Source: Shigella phage Moonfish. From it: DNA of 64,000 bases. Shown in pieces: positions 15,401 through 50,598 of the stretch. Below the pieces are notes generated by a model. The model saw only the letters and a list, made by a program, of their open reading frames with translations, was not told the DNA's origin and ran no database searches. Each line of letters begins with the position of its first letter. Positions within the stretch are counted from its first letter, which is position 1. The translations under genes were made by a program, and so were the position numbers. The stretch lies in sequence record PQ613263; one strand, 5' to 3'.

Positions 15401-18400
15401 AGTCTGCTCTGGAATACGACCAGCGTGAAGGTGCTACTGATGACCTGTTACGTGTTGGTGCTGAACAGATTGAACGTAATCTGCGTAACATTGCTCTGGG
15501 TGTAGATATTCGCCATAAAGTAATGAACCAGGTACAGACTACTGTTGACCAGATGGCTGCTGTAGGTGCTCCTTATGTGAACAACGGTAAAATTTCTCTG
15601 GAAGGTCTGACTGTAGACCAGCAAGTAGCTAAGCTGAACGAACTGTTTGATGCTGAATTAATCAAGCGTCGTGATGCAGTACGTGCTGCTAAAGCAGAAC
15701 CAGTGAAAGAAGTACCGGCGATGGAGCAGGTTGGTCGTGTGCTGAAGTCTGGTGTACGTCTGCTGTCTAACACTGCTATTACTAAGCTGGCTAAAGAGAT
15801 GTCTCCTGAACAGCAAGCAGTATTGAAAGAAGTACAGAACTCCCTTGCTGCTAAAGACTACAAGGTTGTTTATGGTACTCCTGCTCAACTGGATGCTTAC
15901 GCTATTGAGAAGAACATTACTCGCCCAGCACCGGAAGATATTGAAGCTGCTGAAGCTGGTAATGCATACGGCTGGACTAACTTTGATGATAAGACCATCT
16001 ACTTAGTTACTCCTTCCTTAGAGACTCTGGTTCATGAATTGGTACATGCTTCTACTTTCGAATCTGTACTGGCTCACTATGAAGGTACTCCTAATGAAGC
16101 AGTCCAGAATATTGAAGACCTGATGAACCAGTTCCGTGCTCTGGATGTTAAGGATGAATCTCCGGCAGTACGTGAAGCATATGCTGATGCTCTCAATACC
16201 ATTAATGGTCACTTGTCTAATGGCTTTATTGAGCCAGCAATGGCTAAAGCTGCTGCACTTAATGAGTACATGGCATGGGGTTTAACCAACCGTGAACTGA
16301 TTGGTAAGCAGAAGAAAACCACTGCACTTAAGGCCATGGTTCAGTCTGTATATGAAGCAATTAAACGTCTGGTATTTGGGCGTAAGAAAGCTCCTGCTAA
16401 TGCAGATGATATGTTCTCTGGCTTACTGTTTAACTCCTCCGTAGTTATGCGTGGGCAAGCTCCTACTGCTGCTGTGGCTAAGGACACTACCTTGTTCCAT
16501 AGCAAAGCATATGGAGATAACACTCGTCTGGAAGAGTTAGGACAGACCTTCGATAAGCTGATTACTAACTACATTGGTTCAGAACCAGTACAGCAAGTAA
16601 TCCGTAAAGGTAAATTCTCTGATGCAGTAGTGAATGCAACAAAAGTAACTCGTGATGTTCAGGCTCATGGTTTCACTATGAATATGCAGGAACAGCGTCT
16701 CTTTACTAACATTGTTGCTGCACTGGCTACTGAAGCTGCTATTAGCCCAGCTGCTCTGGCTCGTGCACAGGAATACTATGCACACGTTACTAAGAACCTG
16801 ACCGTTGAAGCATTCATGGCTGACCCGGAAAGTACTAACCCTGCTGACCGTTACTACGCACAGCAGAAGTTCGATACCATCATGGGTGCTAACAATATTG
16901 AGTTTGATGCACAGGGTCGTTCTTCCTTACTGCCTACCTTCGTGGCTCTGGCAATGGTAAGTGAAGATGTACGTAACGTACTGGCTGGCATTCCTGTTAT
17001 GAAAGCAGATAAGCAATCTGGTAATACTGTTGATGCAATGCTGACTAACATTGGTACTGCTGCAATGGCTAGCCTGAATGCTCGTGTAGCAGGAGACACT
17101 AAAGCTACCAACGTGCAAGAAGGTATGGATGCACTGGCTCAGACAATCATGCAGACTAGCCTCAATGCACAGTCTTTCTACGATTCCGTTGCTACTCCTA
17201 GTGGTAATGCTATTGACCGTGCTAACCAGTATCTGGTGGACTCTATTGATGTACTGTCTACTCGTGCTTTAGATGGTGCACGTAATGTTGCAGCTAATAC
17301 CAAGAACCCATTGGTTAAAGGTGCTGCTCATGCTGCACAACTGGTAGCTGCTATTGCTACGGAGAAGAATGGTGCAATCGTAGCCGAAGGTGTTATGGCT
17401 GCAATGAACCAGGGTAAGGTATGGCAACCCTTCCATGACTTAGTTAATGACTTAACTGGTCGTACTAAGAGCAATGCTTCTGTATACGATTTAATTAAAG
17501 CAGTACGTGCACAGGTACAAGCTGACCGTCAGCAATTCCGTGAACATCTGCCTACCACTATCGCATCTAAGTTCAGCCGTAAGCTGACTAATGATGAGTG
17601 GAAAGCAATGCATACCGGCATGGGTAAAACTGATTTAGCTGTACTGCGTGACACTATGTCACTGGCTGAAATCCGTGACCTGTTGTCTGACCAGAAGATT
17701 GTTGACCGTGAAGTGAACAAGCTGGAAGCAGATTTGCAGAAACAAGCTGGGCGTAACTGGCCACTGATTAACCGTAAATCTAAGCAACTGGCTCAGTACA
17801 TGATTAACGGCACAGTTGGTAATAATCTGCTGCGTAATGCTACTGCAATCTCTCGTATGCTGGGCGAACGTCAGTCTGCACGTTCTACTGTAGATGTAGC
17901 TCAACTGGATAAACTTATTACCCTGTATGCACTGGAAGCAATGAGCAAAGCTGACCGTGAGCTGTTATCTTCCCTGGCTCAATCAGAAGTTGATGGAATG
18001 GATTTTGCTACTTCTTATCTGGTTGGACAGCGTAAAGATGAAATGGCTAAAGCTAAAACTGATAGCCGTGCAACATTGAACCAGTATAAAGGGCATATCC
18101 CTAGCGAGACTAAGCAGGGTGTTAACCTGATTGTTGCTGAAGATAGCCAGTTTGCTGATTTGATTGAGAAATCCTATGTACGTCTGGGTACTTATCAGGG
18201 TAGTTCTGCTAACCGTGGGCCAGCACGTAGCTACTACTTCGCACCAGTACAGGCACAGGCTCCATTCTCACAGGGCATCTTACAGAACGTTCGTAATACT
18301 GCTGGTGGTGTAGATCTTGGTACAGGCTTTACGATGGGTTCTATGGTAGCAGGTCGTATCACAGACAAGCCTTCAGTAGACCGTATCACTAAAGCTCTGG

Positions 18401-19836
18401 CCCGTGGTGAACGCGGTAATGAACCACTGCTGCCTGTATACGATGACAAAGGTAATGTAGTTGCATATGAGCAGTCTATAGACCCTAACATGCTGAAGCA
18501 CATTGAGGGTGAGAACCATCTTGCACGTGCAATCGGTGTATGGCGTGGTCGTCAGGTGGAAGAAGCTAAGGCTCAGCGTTTTAATGACATGCTGATAGAG
18601 AACCTGCATAGCATGTATGAGAACGACATTAAGATGTCTGCCTCCAATAAGTCCCAGTACGTGAACCTTCTTGGTTCTAAACTGGACCCAGTAACTGCTG
18701 ATGCTCTTAAGCTGATGAACAGTGAGACACGTCAGAAAGCAGAAAGCCTGTTTGGTAATGGTGAACTGTGGGTACGTCGTGACATGCTTAATGATGCTCT
18801 TGGTTATCGTGCAGCTTCTGTAGGTGATGCCTGGTCTGGTAATTCTCGTTGGTCCCCAGAAACGCTGGATACCTTCAAGAAAGCTATGTTAGGTGTGTTC
18901 GGCAATCGTGCTTATAAGTACACAATGGGAGGTGAGAACCTGGTACAGAACTTAGTTAAAGAAGCTAAGACCCTGATTGTAATTAAGTCAGTAGTCGTAC
19001 CTGCTGTTAACTTCTTGGCTAACCTTTACCAGATGGTTGCTCGTGGTGTACCAGTTAAGAACATTGCTAAGAGCATTCCACAGAAAACTGCTGAGATTAA
19101 CCAGTACCTGAAATCTCGTCTGCGTCAGGTAGATGCAGAAGCAGAATTACGTGCAGCTACCAACCCGAACCAGATTCGTAAGCTTAAGGCTGAGATTCAA
19201 TCCATCTCTGATAGCCATAAGCGTATGAGTATCTGGCCTCTGCTGGAAGCTGGTGAGTTCTCTTCAATTGCAGATGCTGGTATTGGGCGTGATGACATCC
19301 TGATTACCGAAGGTAAACTTCAGGAATATATGGATAAACTGGCTGATAAGTTGCCTAAGTCTGTACGTACTGCTGGGCGGTATGCACTCATCACTAAGGA
19401 TACTGCTCTTTTCCAGGGTATCCAGAAAACCGTTGAGTACTCTGACTTTATCGCTAAAGCAATCATCTATGATGAATTGACTCAGCGTAAAGGCAAGACT
19501 CGTGAAGAAGCACTTGGACGTGTAACTGAAGAGTTTGTTAACTATGACCGTCTGCCTGGTCGCTTCCGTGGATATATGGAAAGCGTTGGTTTAATGTGGT
19601 TCTACAACTTTAAGATTCGTTCTGCAAAAGTTGCAGTATCCATGATTCGTAATAACCCAGTACATGCAGCAATGGCTATGTTGGCTCCAGCTCCTACCAT
19701 GTTTGGTAACGTTGGTCTGCCTATTCAGGACAACGTATTTAGTATTGCTGCTAAGGGTGGGCTGGATTCTTCTTGGGGCTTTGGTCAGGGGCTGCGTGCT
19801 CACAACCTGAACCCTTGGTTGAACCTGGTAAACTAA
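9466..19836 (+). CDS. virion-encapsidated giant RNA polymerase (vRNAP, N4 gp50-like)
   Basis: Single uninterrupted 3456-aa ORF (10.4 kb) at the end of the virion gene module; a protein of this size in this position is the hallmark of N4-like phages. All antisense ORFs inside it are short. Confidence 0.9.
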   Translation: MNRKHAMSTFDRLAGFADSITNAKQVDVSTATSQKQAAQGQSPFQLTPENAYNLQTGRVGNLGTGAFEPGSLQADFTQASPLEIINKYGNEKGLQILNSRANAADVVRQDLSKQRTNAEAFGDTLSGVGLGVANTLGGIAALGTGLVNDNAGASIASGMDWLNEGVRNLQSDALNATRKVVQNQNQISAQKNQKLYEQDIKNGENDLVASLSRIGRDAFDSVANTLDNGMAATDGLSEGVGSLFTAGPLIRGVSALGKVMVGGDKAVRGITLAAELGSRPAQVALSAGRVAAPAIAIGGMEAGGAYQQTASEIMKMSHQELASKSPVYQQHIADGLPPDEARRQTASETGITAAGLTAPVAAATGPLVSRFELNPLRVGSLAGAGSNMLRETVEEGIQSGFGQFAQNTAIKENVDASRDTLKGVGEQAGLGALYGFGSAGVAQAPGATVKAAGAATAPVVRTTLAGASLVGNALAKAASPITNILVQRGEEVAKRNEQASPVADATVNAAAQEATAQAEQAQATVQEAVDAMDISPEEKAAATQYAADLTQAMNFDPVELEQANPVIREAVSGSTNRVEAIQKMADLVNTAEDPNVQMEAAIQMYDNIMSMDSFINRDPGALANLEQGSPAATIVDQFSGLMANVQNTPKVLRAFRAIHSMIQEQAEAGKLKATEEANQAQANNIAMAADVSPEVLDADSVNMVLKHASEGKITLGNRQRAALQSAAALLQGAREFDAKAEELGLRPQDIVSKQIKTDESRSNEGQYSALQHAKRIRSAYNSGNFDLAYAYLSDFMKFAQHMQNKVGALNEHLISGNADKNKSVHYQALSPSREWVRSRTGLGVNPYDTKSVKFAQQVGLEAKTVADIANALATAYPELNVSHVKVTSLDSRLNKPAAQVVKEFRQGGLDATQSQQTNEPVNQVDESPAPVQEDTTTVQPKAKPVVENKTAPTKETSPKTEEVSTTKSETVEATLTNEDTIQEVAETKTEMETVFPVYNNEKTPNQFLKAFTLPEEPKSRTIGSESPLTDVKQALSSVARFEAFTQKENNALTGDVIKRYQDLMDFGETLKTTLSERLAKFLANKNVGKRFAEGTEANRWVGGKLLNIVEQDGDTFKFNDQLLETAVLAGLQWRLTATQNAAVKDMKDVAAITGVEASLLPEGILAEFENAQTLVEATNSLAQKIESYWGLNRNPNAPLGYTKGIPMAMATEILSSLIEMGEVKESMLDVSEIDPDSNKTVGLYTIEKLDDNDAINKFPTAIEEAVLLEPEEKMYFGDDIPSVAQTQLRNPAVKNTPEQKAALKVEQATEFRVHMPMVNFYEAMGRDNILELMGAGSLNPELLNVNTAKSLEGKNLSVSMAYDSLFGVINQIKEQENGLDTPIHYGYNMTRVGRMQMLGKNNPQSSKLVREAILPTFSTIDLSNENSQTFSDFQLGLAQALGIKVHNMSREAMSEKLTKALEGNLKPAVDMMVEFDKSGHLPADAVDILKTSLGGDKSFVALMALMEYARYLNSDDRANFNTPLYVEADGVTNGPINAMVLMTGGKFTPDWIKNTAKGGLFFGKAGKTMNEHRSQDDSVDLYEASTNGLQQALGELRSTYRNNVPVMSQMNHLQKLMDLFIKDFNLNEDGTLDLKRGIAKNPLTITIYGSGARGIAGKMVSAITDTIYERFSDVLQARAADPSISPAMAMFGKEAASEADAQAMLDTFLTSMEALTGNVPVMRKGELSIQQAEGALTGKLDPQKFTVSGNALKNLQENMLHLFVEPMRTGIRNTVGEGLMHSTENLQKATQIQSLVLQDMFQQAVQAKLAEKENDPTWKKGDFLTQKELNEIQESLSPLAPMIETGAQTFYIAGSENTDVANQVLATNLDDRMRVPMSIYAPSQAGVAGIPFMTIGTGDGMMMQTLSTMKGAPKNTLKIFDGMNIGINDITDASRKANEAVYTSWQGNPIKNVYDSFAKFMKNVDFSKLSDETKQAIAKSALEYDQREGATDDLLRVGAEQIERNLRNIALGVDIRHKVMNQVQTTVDQMAAVGAPYVNNGKISLEGLTVDQQVAKLNELFDAELIKRRDAVRAAKAEPVKEVPAMEQVGRVLKSGVRLLSNTAITKLAKEMSPEQQAVLKEVQNSLAAKDYKVVYGTPAQLDAYAIEKNITRPAPEDIEAAEAGNAYGWTNFDDKTIYLVTPSLETLVHELVHASTFESVLAHYEGTPNEAVQNIEDLMNQFRALDVKDESPAVREAYADALNTINGHLSNGFIEPAMAKAAALNEYMAWGLTNRELIGKQKKTTALKAMVQSVYEAIKRLVFGRKKAPANADDMFSGLLFNSSVVMRGQAPTAAVAKDTTLFHSKAYGDNTRLEELGQTFDKLITNYIGSEPVQQVIRKGKFSDAVVNATKVTRDVQAHGFTMNMQEQRLFTNIVAALATEAAISPAALARAQEYYAHVTKNLTVEAFMADPESTNPADRYYAQQKFDTIMGANNIEFDAQGRSSLLPTFVALAMVSEDVRNVLAGIPVMKADKQSGNTVDAMLTNIGTAAMASLNARVAGDTKATNVQEGMDALAQTIMQTSLNAQSFYDSVATPSGNAIDRANQYLVDSIDVLSTRALDGARNVAANTKNPLVKGAAHAAQLVAAIATEKNGAIVAEGVMAAMNQGKVWQPFHDLVNDLTGRTKSNASVYDLIKAVRAQVQADRQQFREHLPTTIASKFSRKLTNDEWKAMHTGMGKTDLAVLRDTMSLAEIRDLLSDQKIVDREVNKLEADLQKQAGRNWPLINRKSKQLAQYMINGTVGNNLLRNATAISRMLGERQSARSTVDVAQLDKLITLYALEAMSKADRELLSSLAQSEVDGMDFATSYLVGQRKDEMAKAKTDSRATLNQYKGHIPSETKQGVNLIVAEDSQFADLIEKSYVRLGTYQGSSANRGPARSYYFAPVQAQAPFSQGILQNVRNTAGGVDLGTGFTMGSMVAGRITDKPSVDRITKALARGERGNEPLLPVYDDKGNVVAYEQSIDPNMLKHIEGENHLARAIGVWRGRQVEEAKAQRFNDMLIENLHSMYENDIKMSASNKSQYVNLLGSKLDPVTADALKLMNSETRQKAESLFGNGELWVRRDMLNDALGYRAASVGDAWSGNSRWSPETLDTFKKAMLGVFGNRAYKYTMGGENLVQNLVKEAKTLIVIKSVVVPAVNFLANLYQMVARGVPVKNIAKSIPQKTAEINQYLKSRLRQVDAEAELRAATNPNQIRKLKAEIQSISDSHKRMSIWPLLEAGEFSSIADAGIGRDDILITEGKLQEYMDKLADKLPKSVRTAGRYALITKDTALFQGIQKTVEYSDFIAKAIIYDELTQRKGKTREEALGRVTEEFVNYDRLPGRFRGYMESVGLMWFYNFKIRSAKVAVSMIRNNPVHAAMAMLAPAPTMFGNVGLPIQDNVFSIAAKGGLDSSWGFGQGLRAHNLNPWLNLVN

Positions 19837-21494: not shown

Positions 21495-21654
21495 TAGTAG
21501 CTTTTAATAGATAGCTGTATTTGAGCATTATAGTCTGCTCATACTCACACTCTTCTGTCGAAGAATATGTTTACAATACCTAGAGTGCCGGACTGTCTTA
21601 CCGGCATTGTCTTTAGAGTGCTAAGCAATCAGGACTATGTTCTCTATTAATGGG

Positions 21655-21728
21655 TGCCCACTACTGGATTTGAACCAGTGACTTTCCGATTATTAGTCGG
21701 TTGCTTTCCCCGTCTAAGCTAAGCGGGC
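21655..21728 (-). tRNA. tRNA gene (manual fold); anticodon loop CUAAUAA, anticodon AAU if numbering is canonical (Ile-type; A34 is unusual)
   Basis: Folded by hand on minus strand: acceptor GCCCGCT/AGTGGGC (one G.U), D-stem GCTT/AAGC with GG in D-loop, anticodon stem CCGA/UCGG, perfect T-arm ACTGG-TTCAAAT-CCAGT, discriminator A. Confidence 0.6.
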
Positions 21729-21929
21729 ATTGATAGGTGAGTCCTGCCAGGCTTTAACTGGCTCCTTCTTCGCAATCCTTACATACCCCTACATAATTAT
21801 TGCGTTAAGCTTTTTTGTTTAAGTTTAAGTGAAGGCGTTCTTGCTGACTCATAATTAGGTGAGGCGTTTGACGAATGACTAGTTCGTTACTACCTCGTTG
21901 TTTGCCATAAGTACCTGGCGACTTCAGGT

Positions 21930-22803: not shown

Positions 22804-23034
22804 ATTAACCTCGTTTGAGCCAATCCCCTTCGGAGAGTATTAAAGGGGACTGGCTCGGTTGTTGTTATTCTGGCGGCTTGTCACCACCGTGTTTACCACT
22901 GCATTTCCACAGGATAATGACAGTGATGATAAAAGCTATGTATGGAGCCGACACGTCTATAATCCTGACTAGTAGTAACATCAGGACTATAAACACTACC
23001 ACACCTAGCAGCAGCTTCTGAGCCACCTACCAGA

Positions 23035-23511
23035 TTAACTACGTTTCAGGCCAGCGAACAGTGAAGGTTTCGCAGCAGGTTTCTCTGCTGGTTCTTCAAC
23101 CTTAACTTCTTCCTGCACAACTTCTTCTTGTGCTTCTGGTTCAGCTACTGCTTCTTCTTCTACAGCAACTTCTACTTCAGGTTCCGGCGTAGAACTCTCG
23201 TTCTGACCACCAGTAGAGGTCTGGGTTTCCTCTTCCTTTACCTCTTCAGCCTGAGCTTCTTCTTCTTCCTCTACAACTTCCGGTTCTACCGGACGATGTT
23301 TGGCTTCCTGAGGGTTCTTACGAGGACGACGTGTCTTCTTACCTACCAAGGGTGGAGTATCATCGTTATGATTTACCTCTTCGTTGATACCAACGGAGGC
23401 TGTACCATCTGCATTGATGACAATACTAATGTCACCAGCAAGATTGATTTGATCATCTACATAAGCCTGTACAGCAGCTTCTACTTCGGACTGGTTCAAA
23501 ATGATTTGCAT
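23035..23511 (-). CDS. acidic Glu/Pro-rich protein of unknown function
   Basis: 158-aa ORF; C-terminal two-thirds dominated by E, V, P, A repeats (…EEEEEAQAEEVKEEETQ…PEPEVEVAVEEEAVAEPEAQEE…). Confidence 0.6.
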   Translation of the reverse strand: MQIILNQSEVEAAVQAYVDDQINLAGDISIVINADGTASVGINEEVNHNDDTPPLVGKKTRRPRKNPQEAKHRPVEPEVVEEEEEAQAEEVKEEETQTSTGGQNESSTPEPEVEVAVEEEAVAEPEAQEEVVQEEVKVEEPAEKPAAKPSLFAGLKRS

Positions 23512-23512
23512 G

Positions 23513-24067
23513 TTACGCCTTTAATAATTTAATGAGGTTCTGGAAAGATGGGAGATTTACACCAGCGTGGATTGCACCGATTGCATCAGCCAAGTGCTCA
23601 TTCTTATTTAGAAGTTTGCCTTTCTTATCAGTGAGCCAGTTGGCTTCAGGATAAATGGCATGAGCAGCACGAATCATCGTGTCTTTGGATGCAGTCTTAT
23701 CACCGACCAGTGCAAGTTTGTTTTCAATTGGGGATACTTCAAAGATTGGACAACCCAATGCACGAAATGCACCGATTAATCCTACGCATACACCATAGGA
23801 CTTCATACCGTTAGCGGACTGAGAGCCTACTGGTACTTCTACGAATACTGCTTTAGCAGACCGTAACCATTCCTCACAACCAAGAAACAAATCATGAGAG
23901 GCTTGTATATCTTTGGAGTTGGTTCGAACTTGTTTGTTGTGGTCAACTTCAGTTTGAACCAGTTTAAGTTCGACCTGCTCGAAGACGCCGGACTCAATGT
24001 CCAGCATCCCACGAGCTAAACCCCAATTGCGGAGACTAATATCTGCACCAACAATTGGGATTTTCAT
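23513..24067 (-). CDS. RuvC-like Holliday junction resolvase
   Basis: 184 aa; N-terminal IVGADISLRNWGLA resembles the RuvC ILGIDPG motif; C-terminal HLADAIGAIHAG resembles the RuvC D-A-x-D-A-x-A-I signature. Confidence 0.6.
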   Translation of the reverse strand: MKIPIVGADISLRNWGLARGMLDIESGVFEQVELKLVQTEVDHNKQVRTNSKDIQASHDLFLGCEEWLRSAKAVFVEVPVGSQSANGMKSYGVCVGLIGAFRALGCPIFEVSPIENKLALVGDKTASKDTMIRAAHAIYPEANWLTDKKGKLLNKNEHLADAIGAIHAGVNLPSFQNLIKLLKA

Positions 24068-24864
24068 TATTTCTTACCGAACAGTGATTTACCACCTGCC
24101 GGAGCAGGACCAGTGTTAGCACCCGGTTTAGGAGGCAAGCCACCTTTACCATTACCACCAGCAGAACCCTTGGTCTTATCACGGGTTTTACCTTTGTTCT
24201 TTTCCAACCATGCTGTATGGAATACAGCCAGTTCTGGGGTCAGTTCTTTCTCAGCCTTCTCTGCTTCCTGAGCCTCGATGACTGTGACCAGCAGTTCCGG
24301 GTGAAACACTTTCTGAATCTCGTTTACTTCACGAGTTTCACCAGAGTCAACGTAACCGTTGTCACCTTTAACCTGCTTAGCTTCCAGAACCTTTTCCAGA
24401 GCAAAGGTAACAGTCTGACCTACCAGTTCAACTGGAACCATGACAGACTTGTTGGTTTCTGCTTTCAGGTCAAAGTCATAGACTTTAACAATCTTCTCTT
24501 CGAAGTCAGCATCCGGCAGTTCATTACCAGTAGCCATCAGCATCATGTCATTAATGACAGTGTAACCAGGCAGGAAGTATTCTTTACCGTTCTTCTCGTA
24601 AGTCGGCTTGTTGCCTTTAGCATTACCAGAAGTGAAGTACACCTGGGCACGGAACTCACCAGCATCATTTCCATCGGAACCTTTCAGGTTTTCGATGATT
24701 AACTGCATCCAGTCTGCACCGGAGTCAGCTTTACCTACGTAAGCTACTTTTACAGTACCGGTATAGATATCAGTTTCTTTGGCACCGAAGCCACCACCAC
24801 CAAGGGAGTCTTTTGCAGCTTCAACGTTTTTGGTTTTTTCTTTCAAGTTACCGAACAGTGACAT
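24067..24864 (-). CDS. single-stranded DNA-binding protein (N4-type SSB candidate)
   Basis: 265-aa ORF with Gly-rich basic C-terminus, located between resolvase and ATPase genes; size and position match N4 SSB (inference, not motif-based). Confidence 0.5.
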   Translation of the reverse strand: MSLFGNLKEKTKNVEAAKDSLGGGGFGAKETDIYTGTVKVAYVGKADSGADWMQLIIENLKGSDGNDAGEFRAQVYFTSGNAKGNKPTYEKNGKEYFLPGYTVINDMMLMATGNELPDADFEEKIVKVYDFDLKAETNKSVMVPVELVGQTVTFALEKVLEAKQVKGDNGYVDSGETREVNEIQKVFHPELLVTVIEAQEAEKAEKELTPELAVFHTAWLEKNKGKTRDKTKGSAGGNGKGGLPPKPGANTGPAPAGGKSLFGKK

Positions 24865-24905
24865 AGTATTTTTTCCTATTAAGTGATTAACAACCAGGCA
24901 AACGC

Positions 24906-25658
24906 TTAAGCGTAGTATTCAGCCAGATGGTCTAAGAGTTTTTGAGCGTCATTATCAATGTACGTCTCTGATTTATCGAACATACCCATTGGGGAACGTA
25001 AGCGTTTACCAACAGACTTCTTGGTTGGGCGAGTCTGGAATACGTGCTTATAGCCTAAGTCACGTTCTTCTTCGGTAATTTCAAGCATCTTGTTGCCATA
25101 CTTCTCCAGTTCTTTAATGTCTACACGTTCTGCGTAAACCACTGTAGAGAAGTATGCCTCAAGGCCATTATTCTTCAGGGAGCCTTTCACTGGGATGAAG
25201 GTTTTCATCACACCAGCTGCCTCGTCGAGTTCATCTTTGGCATGAGCAGTAATGATTACAGGCTTACCAAACTTAACAACTTTCTGTTGCAGCAGTACTT
25301 TAAAGAACTGTGCAAAGTCTCCCCAGGCTTTCTGGGTATTAGCAGATGGCAATACATATTGTGATTCCAACATGTCCATCATGAAGGTAGCAGAGTCGAT
25401 AATGATACCATCAACATCGTCTGCCATTTCCCCACCCGGAGATGCAACATCAAATGCTTCCCAAATCTGATATGGGTCTTCAATGTTGTAGGTGTTGAAC
25501 TTATTACGGAAAGGTAGGCGTTTACCTGCTTCAGTATTCAGATACAACCAGCGTTCCTGGTTACGAATATTACGCAGTGATGCTGATTTACCACTCGCTG
25601 AAAATCCTGCAATCAGGATTAGCTGAGTGTTCATATCATTGGAAATTTCTTCGGACAT
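24906..25658 (-). CDS. P-loop ATPase, Sak4/AAA_24-like recombination ATPase candidate
   Basis: 250 aa; Walker A GFSASGKS near N-terminus; compact RecA-like size; adjacent to SSB and nuclease genes. Confidence 0.5.
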   Translation of the reverse strand: MSEEISNDMNTQLILIAGFSASGKSASLRNIRNQERWLYLNTEAGKRLPFRNKFNTYNIEDPYQIWEAFDVASPGGEMADDVDGIIIDSATFMMDMLESQYVLPSANTQKAWGDFAQFFKVLLQQKVVKFGKPVIITAHAKDELDEAAGVMKTFIPVKGSLKNNGLEAYFSTVVYAERVDIKELEKYGNKMLEITEEERDLGYKHVFQTRPTKKSVGKRLRSPMGMFDKSETYIDNDAQKLLDHLAEYYA

Positions 25659-25714
25659 TATTTTTCCTCGTTTAGTTTAGGAGTCCTTCAAACCAAAGAA
25701 AGACTCCTGTTTGC

Positions 25715-27868
25715 TTATTTGCCAGCGTAGCGTTTAGCCACAGTGACCATTACGGTTGCATTCAATTCATCATCTGGTAATGGATTAGCCAGTTTCTTAT
25801 TGAATGAGTAGACGGATTGTTGTACTTGAGCAAAGTCCCAACCACTGTCTACTAATGCCAGTGCGTACTTAATCATTTGATTATTACGATTACCGGAGGC
25901 AATGCGATCAGCGAACCAACGCTCCAGATTGTCTAACGACTGAACTTCCTTCATCTGGTTCTGGAACTGCTCGTTCTTACTGGTACGAGGAATAAAGTCA
26001 CGCACGTCCAACAGATTCGCATCAAGGTTGTAATGATAGGAACCAGTTTCACAGGACATCCACTTCTTGGCTCGTTGGTTAGCAGACTCATCCGTTTCGA
26101 ATGGTAGCCAAGCCATAACGTTATTCATGAACTCTTTATACTCCTCAGTATCGAGGTGTAACTCATAGTTCATTGGAATAATCAGACGGAAGCGGTTCTC
26201 TTCATCAGTATGACGCTTAGTGGTATAGGTCATGAACTTATAATCCTTCATTAGTTCATGGCACGTATGCAGTGGTACTCCACCATCACAATCAATAACA
26301 ATCATGTTAAATCCTGGAATCACGTTCTCATCAGAACGATGTCCATTCTTCATGTGATGGTTCACCCAGTGCATACCGGGAGCTTGGGTTAATACATGTA
26401 GCTGGTCGAACGGTACGCGTTCACCAACATAGTCATAAGCAAAGCTTTCACTATAAGCCACCAGCATCTCATTGGTGTCAGTCTCTTTCAGAGTTTCACC
26501 ACGGAAGAACTCAATACCTTCATTGAATGTCTTCTTAATAATGATGTGCTGTTTGTAACCCCATGCTGTAGCAAGAGTCATCATCTCATTGCGAGCTGCA
26601 TTACCACTCTTATAGAACGGTAAGGACTCCAGCAAGTCAGCATGGGTTACTTCTTTCCCTACTGAAGCAATATACTTAGCCAGCTTCACATAGGCTTTTT
26701 CACGATTGAGGATTGTCTGGAATGCTGCCCCGGATTCCTCTACAAGCAGGATTGCTTGTTTGAGGTGAGCCATCTCAATGAATGAACTCTGGTCAACAAA
26801 CGCCAGTGCACCTGCTAGCTTAAGAGCTTTGAAGTAACGATGGGATATTTCAGCCTTACGAATTTCTTCGTGGTCAGCCATAGCTTCTGCTTGTTTCTCA
26901 CAATCAATTTTGTAAGTAATCAGAGCAATACCCACTGCATCTTCCACAATCATCTTAAAGCCAAACAAGTTTGGGTCAGCCAGACTATGGAAGTGGTTAG
27001 CCCACTTACCAAGAGACTGAACGTTATCCTGCTTAATCAGGTTACGGTAGATTTCTTCAGGAGTCAGTGTTGCATGTGCTCGCTTGTCTAAGTGCCCGAT
27101 GGCAAACAGGCAACGACGAGCATACCCTGTATCAAGGAAGTCATAGAACTGGTCTTCAGTTTGCCCACCATCCAGCAGCTTACTCGGAGTACCGAACAGC
27201 AGTAGGTTAGCAGGAGTTTTACCATCCAGTTCTTCGCCACGAACACTTTCAGCAGTGTTCTTGGTTAACTTCTGTTTTACTTTCCCCTGGTCATATAACT
27301 CAAGGAACAGGTTAAGTACTTCAACGTTGGCAATAAGGTTGGAACCAATCTCGTCAATCTGTAGGTTAATGCCACCACAACCAGCCATAAGCAGTTTGTG
27401 ACGGAGTTGTTTTACAGCAGGTGCTGTACCAGAGTCGAATGTGAATGGGAATGCCCCAGCACGTTTATACTCTGCTTCAACTTTATCGAACTCTTCCTGC
27501 TGGTCAGTACCCTGACGTGCAGAACGTTCGTTAGCAATCTTCCATAGACGGTCATTTGCAATGACGGGCATGGTGTCTTCCATAAAACGTTTACGGAAGC
27601 CAGTCATGAACCCGTCTTCAATGATATTTACTGAGTGACCTTTACCGAAACCAGATGTAGCCAACGCCATAGCGTAGATGTTTACTGGCAGGTCACCACG
27701 GTCTTTAGTTACGATGGTTGCACCCATGCAGGATGCCATTTTAGCCAAGAAGTAGGCTACTTCGACACGGAAGAATCCCCGGTCGTTATTCTGGGTTTTA
27801 TTGCAGAGCACATCTACGATTTCTTCAATCGCCGGATGATGCACTACTCCGGTAAGGTCAATACTCAT
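25715..27868 (-). CDS. DNA primase-like replication protein (N4 gp43-like by synteny)
   Basis: ~717-aa ORF; start probably the Met at 27868, whose ATG overlaps the upstream stop (ATGA); track ORF extends to 27925. Confidence 0.5.
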   Translation of the reverse strand: MSIDLTGVVHHPAIEEIVDVLCNKTQNNDRGFFRVEVAYFLAKMASCMGATIVTKDRGDLPVNIYAMALATSGFGKGHSVNIIEDGFMTGFRKRFMEDTMPVIANDRLWKIANERSARQGTDQQEEFDKVEAEYKRAGAFPFTFDSGTAPAVKQLRHKLLMAGCGGINLQIDEIGSNLIANVEVLNLFLELYDQGKVKQKLTKNTAESVRGEELDGKTPANLLLFGTPSKLLDGGQTEDQFYDFLDTGYARRCLFAIGHLDKRAHATLTPEEIYRNLIKQDNVQSLGKWANHFHSLADPNLFGFKMIVEDAVGIALITYKIDCEKQAEAMADHEEIRKAEISHRYFKALKLAGALAFVDQSSFIEMAHLKQAILLVEESGAAFQTILNREKAYVKLAKYIASVGKEVTHADLLESLPFYKSGNAARNEMMTLATAWGYKQHIIIKKTFNEGIEFFRGETLKETDTNEMLVAYSESFAYDYVGERVPFDQLHVLTQAPGMHWVNHHMKNGHRSDENVIPGFNMIVIDCDGGVPLHTCHELMKDYKFMTYTTKRHTDEENRFRLIIPMNYELHLDTEEYKEFMNNVMAWLPFETDESANQRAKKWMSCETGSYHYNLDANLLDVRDFIPRTSKNEQFQNQMKEVQSLDNLERWFADRIASGNRNNQMIKYALALVDSGWDFAQVQQSVYSFNKKLANPLPDDELNATVMVTVAKRYAGK

Positions 27869-28845
27869 GATGGAAAATATCTCTCTCTTTGTTTGCAAAT
27901 GGACGCGACAGGGCAATATAAACAACGTTTAACCTGCCCCTCCACGACCTTGATAGCACCCTTGCCACCTTTTTCAGCCATGAAGATACGGGCAGATGCC
28001 ATATCATCAAAGTTTTTGGTACTTCTGGCTCCAGGTACATCTACCCTAGAAGCATCAGAGAAGTATTTGAACTGTGGCTCTGTTCGCCACAACTCCTCGT
28101 CAGTACATTCGGGGATTTCCTCTTCAGGTGCATCCCAGTACTTCTCGATTAAGTGAATTTTCTCTTCCACCCAACGTTCAGTCTTCTCGGCAGACAGCAA
28201 CGGAATATCCTTATGCATAATACGATTAGCAGGATAGTTAGGATTACTGTTAGCCATGTGTTTCATGAAGTCGGTGAAGATGTAGTTAATACGGATTACA
28301 TCCTCGGTAATGATGTCGTTGTGAATCCAACGATACAAGCTGCCCTGCATCTTGTGTTCATCATCACGGGAACCAGCAACCCAAGAATAGGTTGAGGTAG
28401 ACTTGAAGTCTTGCAACAGACCTTCTGTTACGATGTCGAACTTACCACCGATAGTCCAACCCTTAACTACCTTGGTTCCACGTTGTTCAATGTAGATTGG
28501 GATAAGGTCAGGGTTAGCAGCAAAGTCTGCTTTGGTTGGGTTAATGACTACTGCATCAATGACTCGCTGAGGATAACCCAGCTTCTTCAATGCAGTCTTG
28601 TGGCCTAGCTTCCAGGCTTTCTCGATAGAATCATGTAAGCCAGTGCCCATTGATGTGGCGACGAAATCCATAACATCAATAGACTGGTCACTAAAATCTA
28701 CACGATGCTTCATGACGATTTGCTTAATAGGCTTAAGCAATGTAGTAGCAGACAGATACTTAGGATTGTCTACGTAATCATACTCGTCATGCAATAGCCA
28801 TACAGCCAGAGCCAGTGAGACATCATGATTGTTGGTTATCCTCAT
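27865..28845 (-). CDS. PD-(D/E)XK nuclease with C-terminal Cys cluster (Cas4/RecB-like exonuclease)
   Basis: 326 aa; GKFDIV...QDFKS (D...Q-x-K nuclease motifs) and C-terminal CLYCPVASIC cysteine cluster. Confidence 0.6.
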   Translation of the reverse strand: MRITNNHDVSLALAVWLLHDEYDYVDNPKYLSATTLLKPIKQIVMKHRVDFSDQSIDVMDFVATSMGTGLHDSIEKAWKLGHKTALKKLGYPQRVIDAVVINPTKADFAANPDLIPIYIEQRGTKVVKGWTIGGKFDIVTEGLLQDFKSTSTYSWVAGSRDDEHKMQGSLYRWIHNDIITEDVIRINYIFTDFMKHMANSNPNYPANRIMHKDIPLLSAEKTERWVEEKIHLIEKYWDAPEEEIPECTDEELWRTEPQFKYFSDASRVDVPGARSTKNFDDMASARIFMAEKGGKGAIKVVEGQVKRCLYCPVASICKQRERYFPS

Positions 28846-29107
28846 TGTAAGCCTTTTTTAATATGCGGTTGGCATAGTGCACAATCTTCTCTGAGTCATA
28901 CACCGAAGAGTTTCCGGGTTTACCATTACCCATACGGGCAGCAGCATTTCGCCATAGAGCTTTAAAGGCACAACCTTCATCGAAGGTCATGCCCAGTGCT
29001 TGGATAATATCCTCACACTCTGCTTGATATGGTTTTTGCTCTATCCGTTGAGGGTTCTTAACTGACACTACATAGTAGTTATTAAGACCGCCGGAGAGCT
29101 TAGTCAT
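28823..29107 (-). CDS. hypothetical protein
   Basis: 94-aa ORF. Confidence 0.45.
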   Translation of the reverse strand: MTKLSGGLNNYYVVSVKNPQRIEQKPYQAECEDIIQALGMTFDEGCAFKALWRNAAARMGNGKPGNSSVYDSEKIVHYANRILKKAYNEDNQQS

Positions 29108-29412
29108 TATTCCCCCTTAGGAACCATGTTTGCTTGGAACTCTGGTTCAGACATTAGACCCAGATTGTTAATAGACAGATAAACAATGTCTTTTAAATCA
29201 ACTGAGGTGTCGAAACGCTGGTCCAGACTAATCTTCAAGGAATGGTTGGCACGGGCCAAATCTTTGTAGGTCACATGAGGTTCGTCAGTGAGCAGCATTG
29301 TGTTCATGGTAAGCAGGGAACCATCATCAGCTTTAGGAAGCTGGAAGATTACCTGTGCTGCTACCATCCAATGATATTTTCTGACAACGGTTTCTTTAGT
29401 ACTTTTAGTCAT
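29107..29412 (-). CDS. hypothetical protein
   Basis: 101-aa ORF, start/stop overlaps with neighbours. Confidence 0.45.
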   Translation of the reverse strand: MTKSTKETVVRKYHWMVAAQVIFQLPKADDGSLLTMNTMLLTDEPHVTYKDLARANHSLKISLDQRFDTSVDLKDIVYLSINNLGLMSEPEFQANMVPKGE

Positions 29413-30317
29413 GCGAATGCCTTTTGAATTATTTGATGAACTTCTTCAGGGGTAGCGTGATTTGGAATCTCAATCTCGTTAGCCCACGTTGGGTAGAACA
29501 AGGACAGTTCCCCACCCAAACCAACTTCTGGATGAGCAATATCAGGATGGTCTTGCCAGTTAACGGCTTCAACCAAATGCTTGTTCGTGTACTGCAAGGT
29601 ATCCATGTTGTCACGAATCATGAAGTACTGAGCATCATGAATGTGAATACTAGGACGAATATCTAACCTGAACTCACTGGCTCTAACTTTACGCATAAAC
29701 TCCGAGCCAGCACGGTTATTCAGTAGGCACCAGCTTTGCCCTAAGGCATTACCAGCAGTTCTACCTTCAGCTTCTGCTTCATATGGAGTCTTACATGTCC
29801 CACGTAAAACCTGAGCCAGTAAAGGAGTACGCACTCTCAAACCAAATGCAGCAGTTACATAACCAGTCTTGGCAGCTTCGTCTAGCTTAGCCTGAACCCA
29901 AGCATCACTAACTACATAAAGGTCGTGATAACGTTTCTCTGTGAGCTTTGCTTTCTCTTCCGAGAAGCCACAGTTCTTCATTAAGCCCATATACGTACCA
30001 CCATAGGTAAGCAGGAAGGTTGGAGCCTTCGAGTCACCTCGTAATGATTTGTATTTGTGCTGGATGGAGTTGATGGATTCAACCGTATCTACAATGTCTG
30101 GCATCTGCTCACCGAAGTAAGCATACGCACGAAGACTGTGCCCATCATAACCATCGGTATATACCTTAAGTTTCTGGGGGTCTTTCGTAGTCAATGCAGA
30201 GATACGGTCTTCAAGGCTTGCAAAGTCCAGTCCACAAAATATCCAACCTGGGGGTGCTTCGAAGCATTTCTTAATCTTCTTGGCATATTTGGAACCACTA
30301 GGGATGGTCTGTAGATT
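29409..30317 (-). CDS. DNA polymerase (family A) 3' exon: polymerase palm/fingers part
   Basis: Begins in-frame with NLQTIP..., contains GLDFASLEDRI (motif A, DYSQIELR-like), KAPTFLLTYGGTYMG (motif B) and IHIHDAQY (motif C HD); joins exon 1 to restore RLSASEP-NLQTIP. Confidence 0.8.
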   Translation of the reverse strand, partial: NLQTIPSGSKYAKKIKKCFEAPPGWIFCGLDFASLEDRISALTTKDPQKLKVYTDGYDGHSLRAYAYFGEQMPDIVDTVESINSIQHKYKSLRGDSKAPTFLLTYGGTYMGLMKNCGFSEEKAKLTEKRYHDLYVVSDAWVQAKLDEAAKTGYVTAAFGLRVRTPLLAQVLRGTCKTPYEAEAEGRTAGNALGQSWCLLNNRAGSEFMRKVRASEFRLDIRPSIHIHDAQYFMIRDNMDTLQYTNKHLVEAVNWQDHPDIAHPEVGLGGELSLFYPTWANEIEIPNHATPEEVHQIIQKAFA

Positions 30318-31023
30318 CCTGATGTTCAGCATGGGTCGTTAATCCATGCCCGTCTTTCGACTGCTGCATATTCCTATGCAGAGCAGACTATATCATCACG
30401 CCAGATAGTAAGGCGTGCCATGCGCTTCCACCCACTTGAGTGTACTCTCTTTCGAGATAGTCGTTGCACCTTTCAATGCTGCGTGTAACCGAGCGTGGTC
30501 AGGAACACTTAGCAATACAAGATTATCAAAGTCGTTGTTATACGGATTCTCATCACAATGATGCACACACCAGCCTTTTGGTATTTCACTGATATTAAGT
30601 GCCTCACATACTACCACATGGTGAGCAAAAACGTGTTTACTGCCTTTGCGTGCAGTATACCAATCCGGTTTAAGTACCATTAAGTAACCTTTACTGTCGG
30701 ATACTAAACCTTTGTAGTTATGATGGTCTTTCCCAAATTTACCTAGCATGGGGTTATTTTCCCCCAGCTTGGAGCGTCGGTAAGACTTTGCATTTCTGTT
30801 TTGACGGTATTCTTTACTGTAGTTCTCCATAATATATTTAGAGACTTTTTTGTAATTAATACCTAAACGCTTTGATATTTCTGCTTGAGATAGGTCAGTA
30901 TTCTCGTACAGAGTCTTGATATCCATCATGTGCCTCCTAAGGCAGGTATGGTTGATTTGGCTCAGGATTGCCCGGTCTGGGTTTCCCCTGAATTCACATG
31001 GTTTAAATAGCCCAATTTATTTT
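30318..31023 (-). mobile_element. probable group I intron (706 nt) inside DNA polymerase gene, carrying an HNH homing endonuclease ORF
   Basis: Interrupts a conserved Pol A motif; 5' exon ends in U, intron ends in G; GGGCU 10 nt into the intron can pair with exon-end AGCCU (P1 with U.G); frame is preserved across the junction. Confidence 0.7.
30396..30929 (-). CDS. HNH homing endonuclease (intron-encoded)
   Basis: 177 aa; own RBS TAGGAGG; N-terminal HTH-like segment; C-terminal HNH motif CVHHCDENPYNNDFDNLVLLSVPDHARLH. Confidence 0.8.
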   Translation of the reverse strand: MMDIKTLYENTDLSQAEISKRLGINYKKVSKYIMENYSKEYRQNRNAKSYRRSKLGENNPMLGKFGKDHHNYKGLVSDSKGYLMVLKPDWYTARKGSKHVFAHHVVVCEALNISEIPKGWCVHHCDENPYNNDFDNLVLLSVPDHARLHAALKGATTISKESTLKWVEAHGTPYYLA

Positions 31024-32694
31024 AGGCTCTGAAGCCGATAACCTGCCGGAGACCGTGCCTCCCAAATTGAGATTACCGAACAGATAGTGCCAGCCATCCG
31101 GTCCCGGTTGGGCGTTCCTGAAAGCTGGTATAAAGCTAGTAATAATCTTATCCACGAGCTTATAGTCGATAAGAGCATTGAGCAGTTCCTTAACATCTTC
31201 ACTCTGCGTATGTGTACGCAGTGCTTTAATAGTGTCACCATCAGTAGCTGGTTGCTTGCTCTTAGTAAGACCAAGAACTGGTAAGCCAATAAAATCAAAT
31301 AACAATTTCTGTAACTGTGGACCGGAGTTAGGATTGAACTCGATGTCACAATCAGCCAATGTTACCTGCTTCTTCTTAAGCTTGGTATTCTTATCGTCTA
31401 CCCATTCCTGACGAAGCATCAGGGTGAAATTCTTCATGAGCTTAGACTCACGAATAGTTTTCAGAGCCTGGTTCCTGTCAGTTTCCATTTCCTCAGCTAC
31501 TTGGTTAACGGTTTCCATATTCATTGGCATACCGGTTAACTGCATCTGAATAATGTCTTCACAGGCAGGTTTAAAGATGTTGTTATAAACATCCAGTTGG
31601 TCATCAGCAATGAGAGTATCCCAGTGCTTCTCGTAGGTGTACCACGTACACAGTCCATCGATTAGGTTGTAGCGTAACAATTGCTCATTAGGAATAAGAC
31701 AAATGTCTTTGATATCGTCTTGAGCATAGTTACCGGCATACTCCTGAGCCTGGTCTTTCAGACTAAGGTGATTACCAGCACAACTGTTAGTAGCCAGATA
31801 AGTGATTAACTTAGTGCAGTCCCAGTTACGTAGCATGACGTTCATGCCATACAGTAGACCTTCTGTATCAATCAGGTTATCCATGAATAACTGATAGATA
31901 AGTACATACACGTCATAGCTAATGTTGTGATACATCTGCCGTTGGGTGTACTTAATGAAGAACTCACGTAACAGGTTACGGACAATATCATTTCTGTTGA
32001 TACGCCCATAAGGTGCTTCAGTAGCTCCCTTAATTGGCTCGTAGTCCACATTAAAAGCTATGCCTTGTGTCTTACTCCAACAGAATGTAATCGTTCCTAT
32101 ACCGGCGTTATAGTGCTTTAAACCGAATGATTCGATGTCTATAGCCAATGGCTTATTCATCTCCAGCAACTGGTCTAGCCAGGCTTTAATCTCTTCGGGG
32201 GTATCTGGGTAGGCCTCAAACTCAATGATTCCCTGACCTGGTTCAGCATACTGTCCACGTATGTGGTTAAGTAGTGCATCCATACCCTGAGCAATTTTAG
32301 CTCTCACTACAGGTGGGTCATAAAAGACCTGTCTGTAGTTAGGCGTATAGATAACCTTCTGCTTACCCCATACTGAGTCACAAACGTAGCCGAGGTTGGC
32401 CTCTGCTTTAGCTTCTTTAGTCAGTATTTTAAAGTAATCAGAATCGGTACAGATGACGTACTGAGTTTCTGCATCATCCAGTACTTGTTGCAGTTCCTGC
32501 TGTATGAACTCCTTAATCTCCTTTGCAGGAGTCTTCTTTTTGCCGGGGGCAGAGTGAAGTTCAAGGAAGATAAAATCTTCCATGCTTAGGTCATATGGCA
32601 GCAGGTAGGTTTTAATCATCTCCTCCCTTCGGATTTGATGACCGAGGATAGCAATAGGATATTTACCCGTATCCTGAGAGGTGATGTAACGCAT
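31024..32694 (-). CDS. DNA polymerase (family A) 5' exon: 3'-5' exonuclease and N-terminal polymerase part
   Basis: Contains Exo I LAIDIESF; ends ...TVSGRLSASEP (then KINWAI* if unspliced), i.e. truncated in the middle of the conserved RLSSSDPNLQNIP motif. Confidence 0.8.
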
Positions 32695-47587: not shown

Positions 47588-47804
47588 AGTTGTTGATGTG
47601 GTAAATCCAGTAAGCTATCCAACCGGCTAATACAAAGCATCCGGCAGAGTACGCCCCATAGTAGCAATAGGCAAACTTGGATTTATGAGCGTTAACCATA
47701 GTGAGTATTACAATAGCAGATAAAACTATCAGTACGGTTTTAGTAATAACATCATAGATGTCTGGCATGTTGACTACCTCCAAGCAAAAAATAAAAGGCC
47801 TCAC
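47586..47804 (-). CDS. small membrane protein
   Basis: 72 aa with two hydrophobic segments. Confidence 0.45.
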   Translation of the reverse strand: MRPFIFCLEVVNMPDIYDVITKTVLIVLSAIVILTMVNAHKSKFAYCYYGAYSAGCFVLAGWIAYWIYHINN

Positions 47805-47822
47805 ACCCGAAGGTATGAGGCC
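47797..47822 (-). terminator. intrinsic terminator after RNAP II 3' exon
   Basis: GGCCTCA...TGAGGCC hairpin with TTTTATTTTTT on the minus strand. Confidence 0.5.
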
Positions 47823-47828
47823 AGTTTA

Positions 47829-47861
47829 TTAACTTAATGCATAATCCGTTTCAAGAATGTC
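47829..47861 (-). CDS. RNAP II large subunit, 3' mini-exon encoding the C-terminal foot (D)ILETDYALS
   Basis: Closely resembles the T7 RNAP C-terminus RDILESDFAFA; exact 3' junction inferred. Confidence 0.55.
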   Translation of the reverse strand, partial: DILETDYALS

Positions 47862-48988
47862 CTGCCAGAGGCTGTCATCCAGCTTACCCGCAGAGAACTC
47901 TTGTCCCAGTACCTGAGATAGGATGAAGCCCAGCAAGTCACTCTTAGCAATGTCAGATAGAATCTGATTGTACTGACGACGTAGGTCATTACCATAGTTA
48001 GGATGACAACGAAAACCATTAGTTAAACGAGTCGTTAGCTCGCCCTTACCTTCCATGATTAACATGAAAGCCATATGTAGCATCTGCTTGTTTACGAGCA
48101 AGCATTGCCTCCTCAAGTGTGTCGTACGTACCCAGACCGATCTGTTTGCGATTGACTGTGATGTGTGCCTGAAATCTACCAGAAGGCAGTATTCTCACAC
48201 CGTTCACTTTGCTTGAAGTATTACTAGATAAACTCATATTCATCTGGTTCTGTCTGCTGGTTACATTTCTCAAATTAGACCAACGATTGTCGTTTCTAGT
48301 ATGATTGATGTGGTCCACCTGGTTAGGTGTTTCCCCAGTTTCCATTATCCAGATTATTCGATGTAGTAAGTACTCTTTGCGGCCCAGGCTAACGGATAGA
48401 TACCCTTCTTTGTGAGGATACCCCACAATTGTTCCGGCTAACCCACTGGCAGAGTCATAACGATGAGTCACTAGCCCACTATCCCTGTCATACCTTAAAA
48501 CCTTCTGCAAAGATTCTTGGGTAATATTACCCAAGTTTATTATTAGGTTTTTACAGGTAGAGCATAGATGACCTATTGGACTCTTTCTAGCATCATAGAA
48601 GTTACAAACAAACTCATTAGAGCATTGCTTGCAACTACAGATAGCTGTGTACTTACCAGTTTTACGTAATATTTGAGAGTTATCTAACATATGGATTCCT
48701 TAGTAATTTTGCATACAATTTCAGATTGTATCCTAACCAAGGAAGTAAGTCTCCAATTTTCACTGGAGTATCGGACTATATCATCACCCACTAATCAGTG
48801 GGGCAAGGCGCTTGGGTGGTCACTTGACTCACCTACTCTACTCACATACGAAATGCTTTCGATAGTCTCTGAACCTTCCCTCATAGAGGGCTTGGCTGCT
48901 GATTGGCATATCCATAGGACTTAGCTTTCCAGCAATTCACCTTGTTTTCGACACGGATTACTCCGTGAAGGATCATTTATGTTTAATC
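47862..48988 (-). mobile_element. probable group I intron (~1.1 kb) in RNAP II large-subunit gene, carrying an HNH-AP2 endonuclease ORF
   Basis: Upstream ORF stops right after ...VLTVHD, 9-10 codons short of a T7-like C-terminus that is encoded 1.1 kb downstream in frame-compatible position; splice after caU with intron ending caG satisfies U/G group I rules. Confidence 0.55.
48046..48690 (-). CDS. HNH endonuclease with AP2 DNA-binding domain (intron-encoded)
   Basis: 214 aa; own AAGGAA RBS; HNH_3-like GYLSVSL...HRIIWIMETGETPNQVDHINHTRNDNRWSNLR; C-terminal AP2-like GVRILPSGRFQAHI...GTYDTLEEA. Confidence 0.8.
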   Translation of the reverse strand: MLDNSQILRKTGKYTAICSCKQCSNEFVCNFYDARKSPIGHLCSTCKNLIINLGNITQESLQKVLRYDRDSGLVTHRYDSASGLAGTIVGYPHKEGYLSVSLGRKEYLLHRIIWIMETGETPNQVDHINHTRNDNRWSNLRNVTSRQNQMNMSLSSNTSSKVNGVRILPSGRFQAHITVNRKQIGLGTYDTLEEAMLARKQADATYGFHVNHGR

Positions 48989-50014: not shown

Positions 50015-50015
50015 C

Positions 50016-50597: not shown

Positions 50598-50598
50598 A

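Follow-up and report, generated by a model that had tools for sequence, protein, structure and literature searches.

The described systems closest to the locus analysed here are those of phages N4 and G7C and, for two of its genes, that of phage HK620. The locus is a block of five genes, gp42 to gp46, in a 64,000-nucleotide (nt) stretch of Shigella phage Moonfish (sequence record PQ613263; this whole stretch is called the window below). Two of the N4 proteins, the dns gene product (gp43) and the single-stranded DNA (ssDNA)-binding protein N4SSB (gp45), were defined genetically and biochemically decades ago. N4 depends on N4SSB for replication and recombination, and the protein also activates the Escherichia coli sigma70 RNA polymerase at late promoters through a contact with the beta' subunit, for which its C-terminus is essential and ssDNA binding dispensable (PMC4496689); ssDNA binding requires Y75, and late-transcription activation requires S260, K264 and K265 (PMC2784036). 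The dns gene is essential for replication, and its product has a DUF3987 helicase, a distant relative of MCM, in front of an AEP primase and a PriCT-1 domain, an atypical order, since in 94% of helicase-AEP fusions the primase is N-terminal (PMC4889955). [quoted passage not shown]

In the window, five adjacent open reading frames (ORFs) lie exactly where an earlier reading of the DNA, made from the letters alone (the sequence-only reading), had placed them (23513-28845), all on the minus strand:

23513-24067, minus strand: gp46 orthologue, putative RuvC-type Holliday junction resolvase, 184 amino acids
24067-24864, minus strand: gp45 orthologue, N4SSB, 265 amino acids
24906-25658, minus strand: gp44 orthologue, Sak4-type core-only RecA-like ATPase, putative ssDNA annealing protein, 250 amino acids
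25715-27868, minus strand: gp43 orthologue (N4 dns), predicted N-terminal DUF3987-type P-loop helicase with C-terminal AEP primase and PriCT-1, 717 amino acids counted from the ATG (the longest ORF begins at a TTG, 27925)
27865-28845, minus strand: gp42 orthologue, predicted RecB-family (Cas4-fold) nuclease with a four-cysteine cluster, annotated as exonuclease, 326 amino acids

We consider it very likely that these genes represent the stretch from gp42 to gp46 in the middle-gene DNA replication cluster of a G7C-group N4-like coliphage, with the recombination-dependent roles proposed below. The block has already been described and nothing in it is new; the annotations of dozens of sequenced G7C- and N4-like phages include it, and it matters little as a discovery. 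The sequence-only reading had called it a compact recombination module; the five genes are indeed there, but they do not form a self-contained module, the block making up the distal half of the replication genes clustered in N4-type phages, with gp43 as the dns helicase-primase. Reading the raw sequence gave five correct family calls, which the present check confirms, and gp42, gp44 and gp46, which many records still label as hypothetical, now have a structure-backed annotation. N4-like phages are under development for therapy, and a phage's own set of exonuclease, annealase, SSB and resolvase bears on its recombination potential and on its engineering.

Identity of the phage and conservation of the gene block

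A megablast comparison of the region 23000-29500 with 50,697 phage records returned 84 matching records, in which the five ORFs correspond to annotated genes and 57 of which contain a single match spanning at least 80% of the query. The closest records (Escherichia phages E20, F22, Bas96, phi G17, PhAPEC5/7, IME11 and G7C) are 92-95% identical at the DNA level, and 57 Gamaleyavirus-type records share 93-94% DNA identity over 6.5 kb. G7C is classified in the Schitoviridae, Enquatrovirinae, Gamaleyavirus, among the N4-like podoviruses. These nucleotide matches place the window in the G7C group (Gamaleyavirus, Schitoviridae) of N4-like coliphages. An ORF of 3456 amino acids on the plus strand (9466-19836) has a size and position that suggest the virion RNA polymerase, whose gene in G7C also lies on the strand opposite to the replication block; the minus strand carries every gene from approximately 20 to 53 kb.

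The gene order, strand and lengths of gp42-gp46 are the same in the window, G7C and N4. Each of the five proteins has hundreds to thousands of homologues, and their identities amount to 98% (gp46), 95% (gp45), 99% (gp44), 97% (gp43) and 97% (gp42) with G7C, and to 68%, 59%, 77%, 81% and 70%, respectively, with N4. We collected 80 viral contigs encoding a gp42 relative, 59 of them with at least 5.5 kb of downstream sequence. In all 59, gp42, gp43, gp44 and gp45 follow one another in the same order and orientation, and gp46 comes next in 50. The block is a fixed feature of the phage family and not a peculiarity of one phage.

The starts of the five genes had been described as translationally coupled, which holds for two of the four internal junctions. 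The gp42 and gp43 genes share the 4-nt ATGA overlap that had been pointed out at 27865-27868 (27868-27865 in the direction of reading, CCATCATGAGT), and gp45 and gp46 share a 1-nt TAATG overlap; both overlaps recur in G7C and N4, where that of gp42 and gp43 is annotated likewise. The other two junctions do not overlap: gaps of 41 nt (gp44/gp45) and 56 nt (gp43/gp44, 25659-25714) separate genes that have their own AGGA/GAGGA Shine-Dalgarno sequences. Scans of the region from 21 to 33 kb found no sigma70-type promoter or intrinsic terminator punctuating the block, intrinsic terminators being at background level; matches to sigma70-like promoters are, in fact, depleted between 21000 and 33000 (9, against 21.8 +/- 4.3 in shuffled sequences). 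This depletion fits a transcription of the middle genes by RNAPII of the phage and not by the host polymerase.

The helicase-primase gp43 and the N4SSB orthologue gp45

The gp43 protein had been read as a primase, which is correct but incomplete. It matches phrog_2135 (DNA primase, 1235 bits), and the PriCT_1 model is matched above its cutoff (27.6 bits, cutoff 21.1) at residues 654-706, as it is in 20 of 22 homologues. No dedicated AEP Pfam model was matched by gp43; the AEP residues D526 and D528 (the DxD motif) and D593 are, nevertheless, at least 90% conserved among homologues of 27-65% identity, and H553 is conserved to the same degree among the closer ones. Over the same range of homologues, the N-terminal part shows no variation at the Walker A residues S72, G73 and K76, at the Walker B residue E173 or at R251 and R252, and D172 is at least 90% conserved. 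An exhaustive HMMER search with residues 1-460 retrieved 486 relatives, mostly of approximately 700-750 amino acids. The DUF3987 model reaches 13.7 bits (E 0.037) on gp43 itself, under the cutoff of 27, and matches 9 of 22 distant homologues, the best at 8.9e-12. Searches of PDB with the single sequence and with a profile gave nothing meaningful. We call gp43 a helicase-primase because the motifs and the DUF3987 matches agree with the published description of N4 dns; as far as these motifs tell, it is a helicase-primase and not only a primase. The DUF3987-AEP fusions of phages and mobile elements share with gp43 the Walker A and B motifs of a P-loop helicase (predicted in gp43), the AEP DxD/H/D motifs and PriCT-1. 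In gp43, however, the domain order is reversed with respect to the usual fusions, the primase following the helicase.

The assignment of gp45 as an SSB stood, and its family could be specified: gp45 matches phrog_743 (2.7e-89) and is 59% identical to N4 gp45 over 264/265 residues (E 4e-101), both proteins having 265 amino acids. Y75 of N4SSB is kept as Y76, and the last seven residues, KSLFGKK, are identical, including S260, K264 and K265. With the residues for late-transcription activation in place, gp45 very probably acts as a late-gene switch as well, a role that the sequence-only reading had missed.

Two short motifs recur in the N4SSB family among homologues of 35-97% identity, MS(x)LFGNL at the N-terminus and (R/K)KSLFG(K)K at the C-terminus, the latter overlapping the published activating region of N4SSB. 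The protein encoded next to gp46, gp47 (23035-23511, minus strand), ends in PSLFAGLKRS in the G7C group and not in N4. The terminal motifs of the N4SSB family and of gp47 may represent a shared docking peptide.

The Sak4-type ATPase gp44 and the putative RuvC-type resolvase gp46

The reading of gp44 as a Sak4-like ATPase was borne out. AAA_24 is matched above cutoff (6.4e-11, 42.9 bits, cutoff 27) at residues 14-218 of 250, and the two top PHROG families, phrog_124 (Sak4-like ssDNA annealing protein, 8.4e-50) and phrog_2872, are both described as Sak4-like. Both Walker motifs, A (GFSASGKS) and B (GIIIDS), are complete and conserved with N4. In BLASTP, gp44 and HK620 Sak4 align in two colinear segments (1e-6 and 6e-6), one at the P-loop, within the Walker A region, and one at a C-terminal SPMGMFD that both proteins have; the similarity is confined to these two stretches of 39 amino acids. 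That it is limited to the two termini, that AAA_24 is a broad P-loop family and that gp44 has a weak match to the BrxF P-loop model would also suit a loader or accessory ATPase serving the gp43 helicase-primase or the gp37 helicase, and not an annealing recombinase. We hold this to be improbable, since the Sak4-like families rank first for gp44 and its size and core-only architecture are those of Sak4. The gene order argues in the same direction: in HK620 (Sak4, HkaL; SSB, HkaK) as in the window, a core-only RecA-like ATPase of approximately 230-250 amino acids is encoded directly upstream of an atypical SSB. Moreover, N4-like phages have been named as Sak4 carriers, and N4 gp45 has been linked to the HK620 SSB by HHsearch (PMC5928155); between gp45 and the HK620 SSB we found no BLASTP similarity, and their relationship rests on that published HHsearch. 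From its family matches and motifs, gp44 is therefore placed in the Sak4 family of core-only RecA proteins, as a putative annealing protein. The two systems differ in the partners of this pair, Abc2 and the RusA resolvase in HK620, a RecB-like nuclease and RuvC in the window.

For gp46, the call of a RuvC-like resolvase was upheld by sequence profiles and by the predicted structure. The protein matches phrog_159 (RuvC-like Holliday junction resolvase, 3.4e-42), and the Pfam family RuvC (PF02075) is found, as a precomputed match, on several homologues at least 50% identical to it. A profile of 24 homologues run against PDB returned RuvC chains only, at non-significant E values of 0.12-0.8. The AlphaFold2 model (pLDDT 91.6), compared with PDB by Foldseek, has bacterial RuvC as its top 12 matches (best 7xhj, E 1.6e-8, TM-scores 0.66/0.78), followed by the chloroplast MOC1, the RuvC of the lactococcal phage bIL67 and the poxvirus resolvase. 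The RNase H-like fold matches that of bacterial RuvC, with a sequence identity of 17-21%. The active site of Thermus thermophilus RuvC is formed by D7, E70, H143 and D146 (PMC3592405); in gp46 the residues D9, E77, H158 and D161, invariant in the 24 homologues (50-97% identity), make up the same D-E-H-D tetrad with the same H-x2-D spacing. The protein is approximately 20 residues longer than bacterial RuvC, with an insertion around residues 39-51 where the model confidence is lower, and, unlike bacterial RuvC, has no RuvAB partners encoded nearby. The predicted RuvC fold, together with the catalytic tetrad, supports the assignment of gp46 as a resolvase.

A predicted RecB-family nuclease with a Cas4-like fold

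The sequence-only reading had described gp42 as a Cas4/RecB-like nuclease with a C-terminal cysteine cluster and had hinted at a link with CRISPR adaptation. Cas4 proteins have the RecB motifs I, II and III, a QhXXY motif, and one N-terminal and three C-terminal cysteines, the N-terminal one being Cys32 in SSO0001 and Cys64 in Pcal_0546 (PMC4176176). In gp42 the RecB motifs (H71/E75, GGKFD137, D146-F-K148 and Q167-G-S-L-Y171) are invariant in the 80 related loci, of 48-99% identity. The nearest solved fold to the predicted structure is that of Cas4 SSO0001, with EXO5, MGME1 and Dna2 as close structural neighbours, and the fold matches also include RecE and lambda exonuclease. Searches of PDB with the gp42 sequence and with a profile gave nothing meaningful, and no Pfam family besides PDDEXK_1 was found. 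The PHROG matches are phrog_2139 (exonuclease, 1.7e-151) and phrog_1706 (CRISPR/Cas system associated, 1.9e-11).

The cysteine cluster is present and conserved. There are four cysteines in gp42, C247 and C308-x2-C311-x5-C317; C247 is invariant in 80/80 loci, and the other three are found in 79/80, the remaining locus being unaligned there. The C-terminal C-x2-C-x5-C spacing equals that of Cas4. The fourth cysteine does not occupy the Cas4 position: C247 lies after the nuclease core, whereas in Cas4 this residue is N-terminal, and 78 of the 80 relatives have no cysteine in their first 110 residues.

That the top structural match is a CRISPR Cas4 and that phrog_1706 is matched could be taken to mean that gp42 serves counter-defence, as a Cas4-like nuclease that interferes with or misdirects CRISPR spacer acquisition. 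This is, in our view, extremely unlikely. No model of PADLOC-DB, a library of defence-system proteins, matches gp42 even at E <= 1, PDDEXK_1 is its only Pfam family, and the N-terminal cysteine that defines Cas4 is missing in the relatives counted above. Furthermore, gp42 has no cas neighbours and is flanked by gp41 and the helicase-primase gene in 59/59 contigs, a behaviour of core-replication and not of accessory genes. The type I-E CRISPR systems of E. coli are not known to use Cas4, which counts against counter-defence too. The hinted link with CRISPR adaptation is thus unsupported, given the absence of a cas profile match, the missing cysteine and the fixed replication context in all relatives examined; "Cas4-like fold" is a right description of gp42 and "Cas4" a wrong one. 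What stands is a predicted RecB-family nuclease of the Cas4/EXO5/Dna2 fold with a putative four-cysteine metal cluster.

The same structural neighbours bear on a second alternative, in which gp42 would be mainly a replication nuclease that removes the RNA primers of Okazaki fragments or 5' flaps, like Dna2, EXO5 and MGME1. The N4-type polymerase is without a 5'-3' exonuclease domain, for which gp42 would stand in, and those three nucleases are close to it in structure; recombination nucleases, RecE and lambda exonuclease, are, however, also among the fold matches. A 1986 study by Guinta et al. is said to have found that N4 replication also needs the 5'-3' exonuclease of the host Pol I, which would cover primer removal and counts against this alternative. 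We regard a mainly Okazaki-processing role as possible but rather unlikely. It is compatible with the recombination role preferred here, the two not being mutually exclusive.

In comparison with Cas4 and with the "iron-staple" RecB-like nucleases, approximately 85 extra C-terminal residues of gp42 form a small beta/alpha subdomain in the model. Because C247 follows the nuclease core, the cluster cannot fasten the N-terminal part to the C-terminal one, unlike in the iron-staple proteins EXO5, Dna2, AddB and AdnAB. The gp42 family may constitute a distinct branch of cysteine-cluster RecB-like nucleases, with all four putative metal ligands in an appended C-terminal subdomain. If so, the cluster would be a separate module for binding DNA ends or a partner, and not an iron staple across the nuclease core.

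A proposed scheme for replication and recombination

Together, the five proteins could act as follows. At genome ends, nicks or flaps, 5' strands would be degraded by the nuclease gp42, and gp45 would coat the exposed ssDNA. This would be annealed by gp44 to complementary ssDNA, for example of the terminal repeats or of a sister copy, yielding concatemers as well as 3' ends for extension by the gp39 polymerase. The gp43 protein would unwind the fork and prime the lagging strand, and gp46 would cut branches before packaging. Accumulating gp45, through its C-terminal tail, would turn on the late genes and so tie morphogenesis to replication.

Several points weigh against this reading. A literature search found no biochemistry for gp42, gp44 or gp46 of any N4-like phage, and their roles are for this reason assigned from family membership. 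The score of gp42 with PDDEXK_1 is 17.9 bits, under the cutoff of 22 (15 of 24 homologues match the model), and gp46 has no Pfam hit at E <= 0.1, RuvC PF02075 included. With Pfam below cutoff or absent for these two window proteins, their family calls are based on PHROG profiles together with conserved motifs and predicted folds; NCBIfam gave no useful match for any of the five proteins. The RefSeq name of gp42, exonuclease, is a profile annotation and not the outcome of an assay, and from the sequence the four cysteines could hold either an iron-sulfur cluster or zinc. N4 genetics reportedly defined a 5'-3' exonuclease function, exo; our literature search found no paper that maps this classical function to gp42.

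A hairpin in the spacer upstream of gp44

The 56-nt spacer that separates gp43 from gp44 contains one further feature:

25679-25708, minus strand: conserved hairpin with an 11-base-pair stem and an 8-nt loop, apex CTTTCTTTGGTT

Its minimum free energy is -18.3 kcal/mol (z -2.95). N4 has a hairpin at the equivalent position, with a different stem sequence and a similar apex, and in approximately 40 distinct N4-like contigs the spacer folds into a hairpin, the stems differing. Among 32 distinct homologous spacer segments the median z value is -3.0, and 23 of them lie below -2; the apex or its vicinity repeatedly carries a T-rich...TGG(T/C)T motif in the relatives. RNAalifold, applied to a MAFFT alignment of the spacer, returned no consensus structure, the stems being out of register, and covariation is for this reason argued from individual folds only. 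We also considered the apex motif as a general middle promoter or terminator motif and rejected it, since the motif is neither repeated nor enriched elsewhere in the window.

The hairpin may be a regulatory switch, for example an attenuator, a processing site or a protein operator. In LUZ7, a distant N4-like phage, a terminator with stage-dependent read-through lies upstream of orf65, which is described as regulating the last stage of transcription (PMC9163698). If orf65 is taken as an SSB-type gene, it offers a parallel to the gp43/gp44 hairpin, by analogy only. A switch at this position would control how much Sak4, SSB and RuvC is made and, via N4SSB, also when late transcription takes place. 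Neither the gp42 cluster as a separate module nor the hairpin as a regulatory switch was found described in the literature that we examined; a joint reading of the two features in these terms is speculative, and we judge it unlikely.

Neighbouring genes, introns and homing endonucleases

The genes around the block are less uniform. Upstream, gp41 (28823-29107, minus strand) has 94 amino acids in the window, as in Bas96, whereas it has 156 in G7C and 202 in N4, and it shares the 23 nt at its 3' end with gp42. The HNH gene gp41.1, which G7C carries between gp41 and gp42, is missing from the window. The short gp41 and the missing gp41.1 together look like a deletion scar left when a homing endonuclease was gained or lost. 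On its downstream side, the replication block is followed by a single tRNA gene (21651-21729, minus strand), identified as tRNA-Ile (anticodon AAT) by ARAGORN and matched by the Rfam tRNA model at 63.8 bits; a tRNA-Val is annotated in the equivalent region of Bas96.

The DNA polymerase gene (exons 31024-32694 and 29409-30317, minus strand) is split by a 706-nt insertion (30318-31023), which G7C does not have. Joining 31024 to 30317 restores the motif SASEPNLQTIP (split as SASEP|NLQTIP) and yields a product of 859 amino acids that is 98% identical to G7C gp39, with no gaps. The insertion carries an HNH ORF (30396-30929, HNH_3). Its boundaries, with U as the last nucleotide of exon 1 and G as the last of the insert, agree with those expected for group I introns, and the Rfam group I match is sub-threshold (33 bits, E 1.8e-6). 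The segment 30318-31023 is thus probably a group I-type intron with a homing endonuclease ORF, and the element is annotated likewise in PhAPEC5 and PhAPEC7. In Bas96 (sequence L002, 4885-6433) the annotation divides the gp44 gene into two exons, joined across an endonuclease ORF; mobile introns therefore frequently target the replication genes in the G7C group.

A group I intron is also matched (RF00028, 91 bits, E 5e-22) at 48751-48994 on the minus strand, at the 3' end of an RNAPII-type polymerase ORF (48983-50014), and is followed by an ORF for an endonuclease with HNH_3 and AP2 domains (48046-48690). No phage record covers more than 59% of the region 47700-50700, of which phage ZQ2 shares the intron part. 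An ORF with a NUMOD1 domain (50016-50597) lies between the two RNAPII subunit genes.

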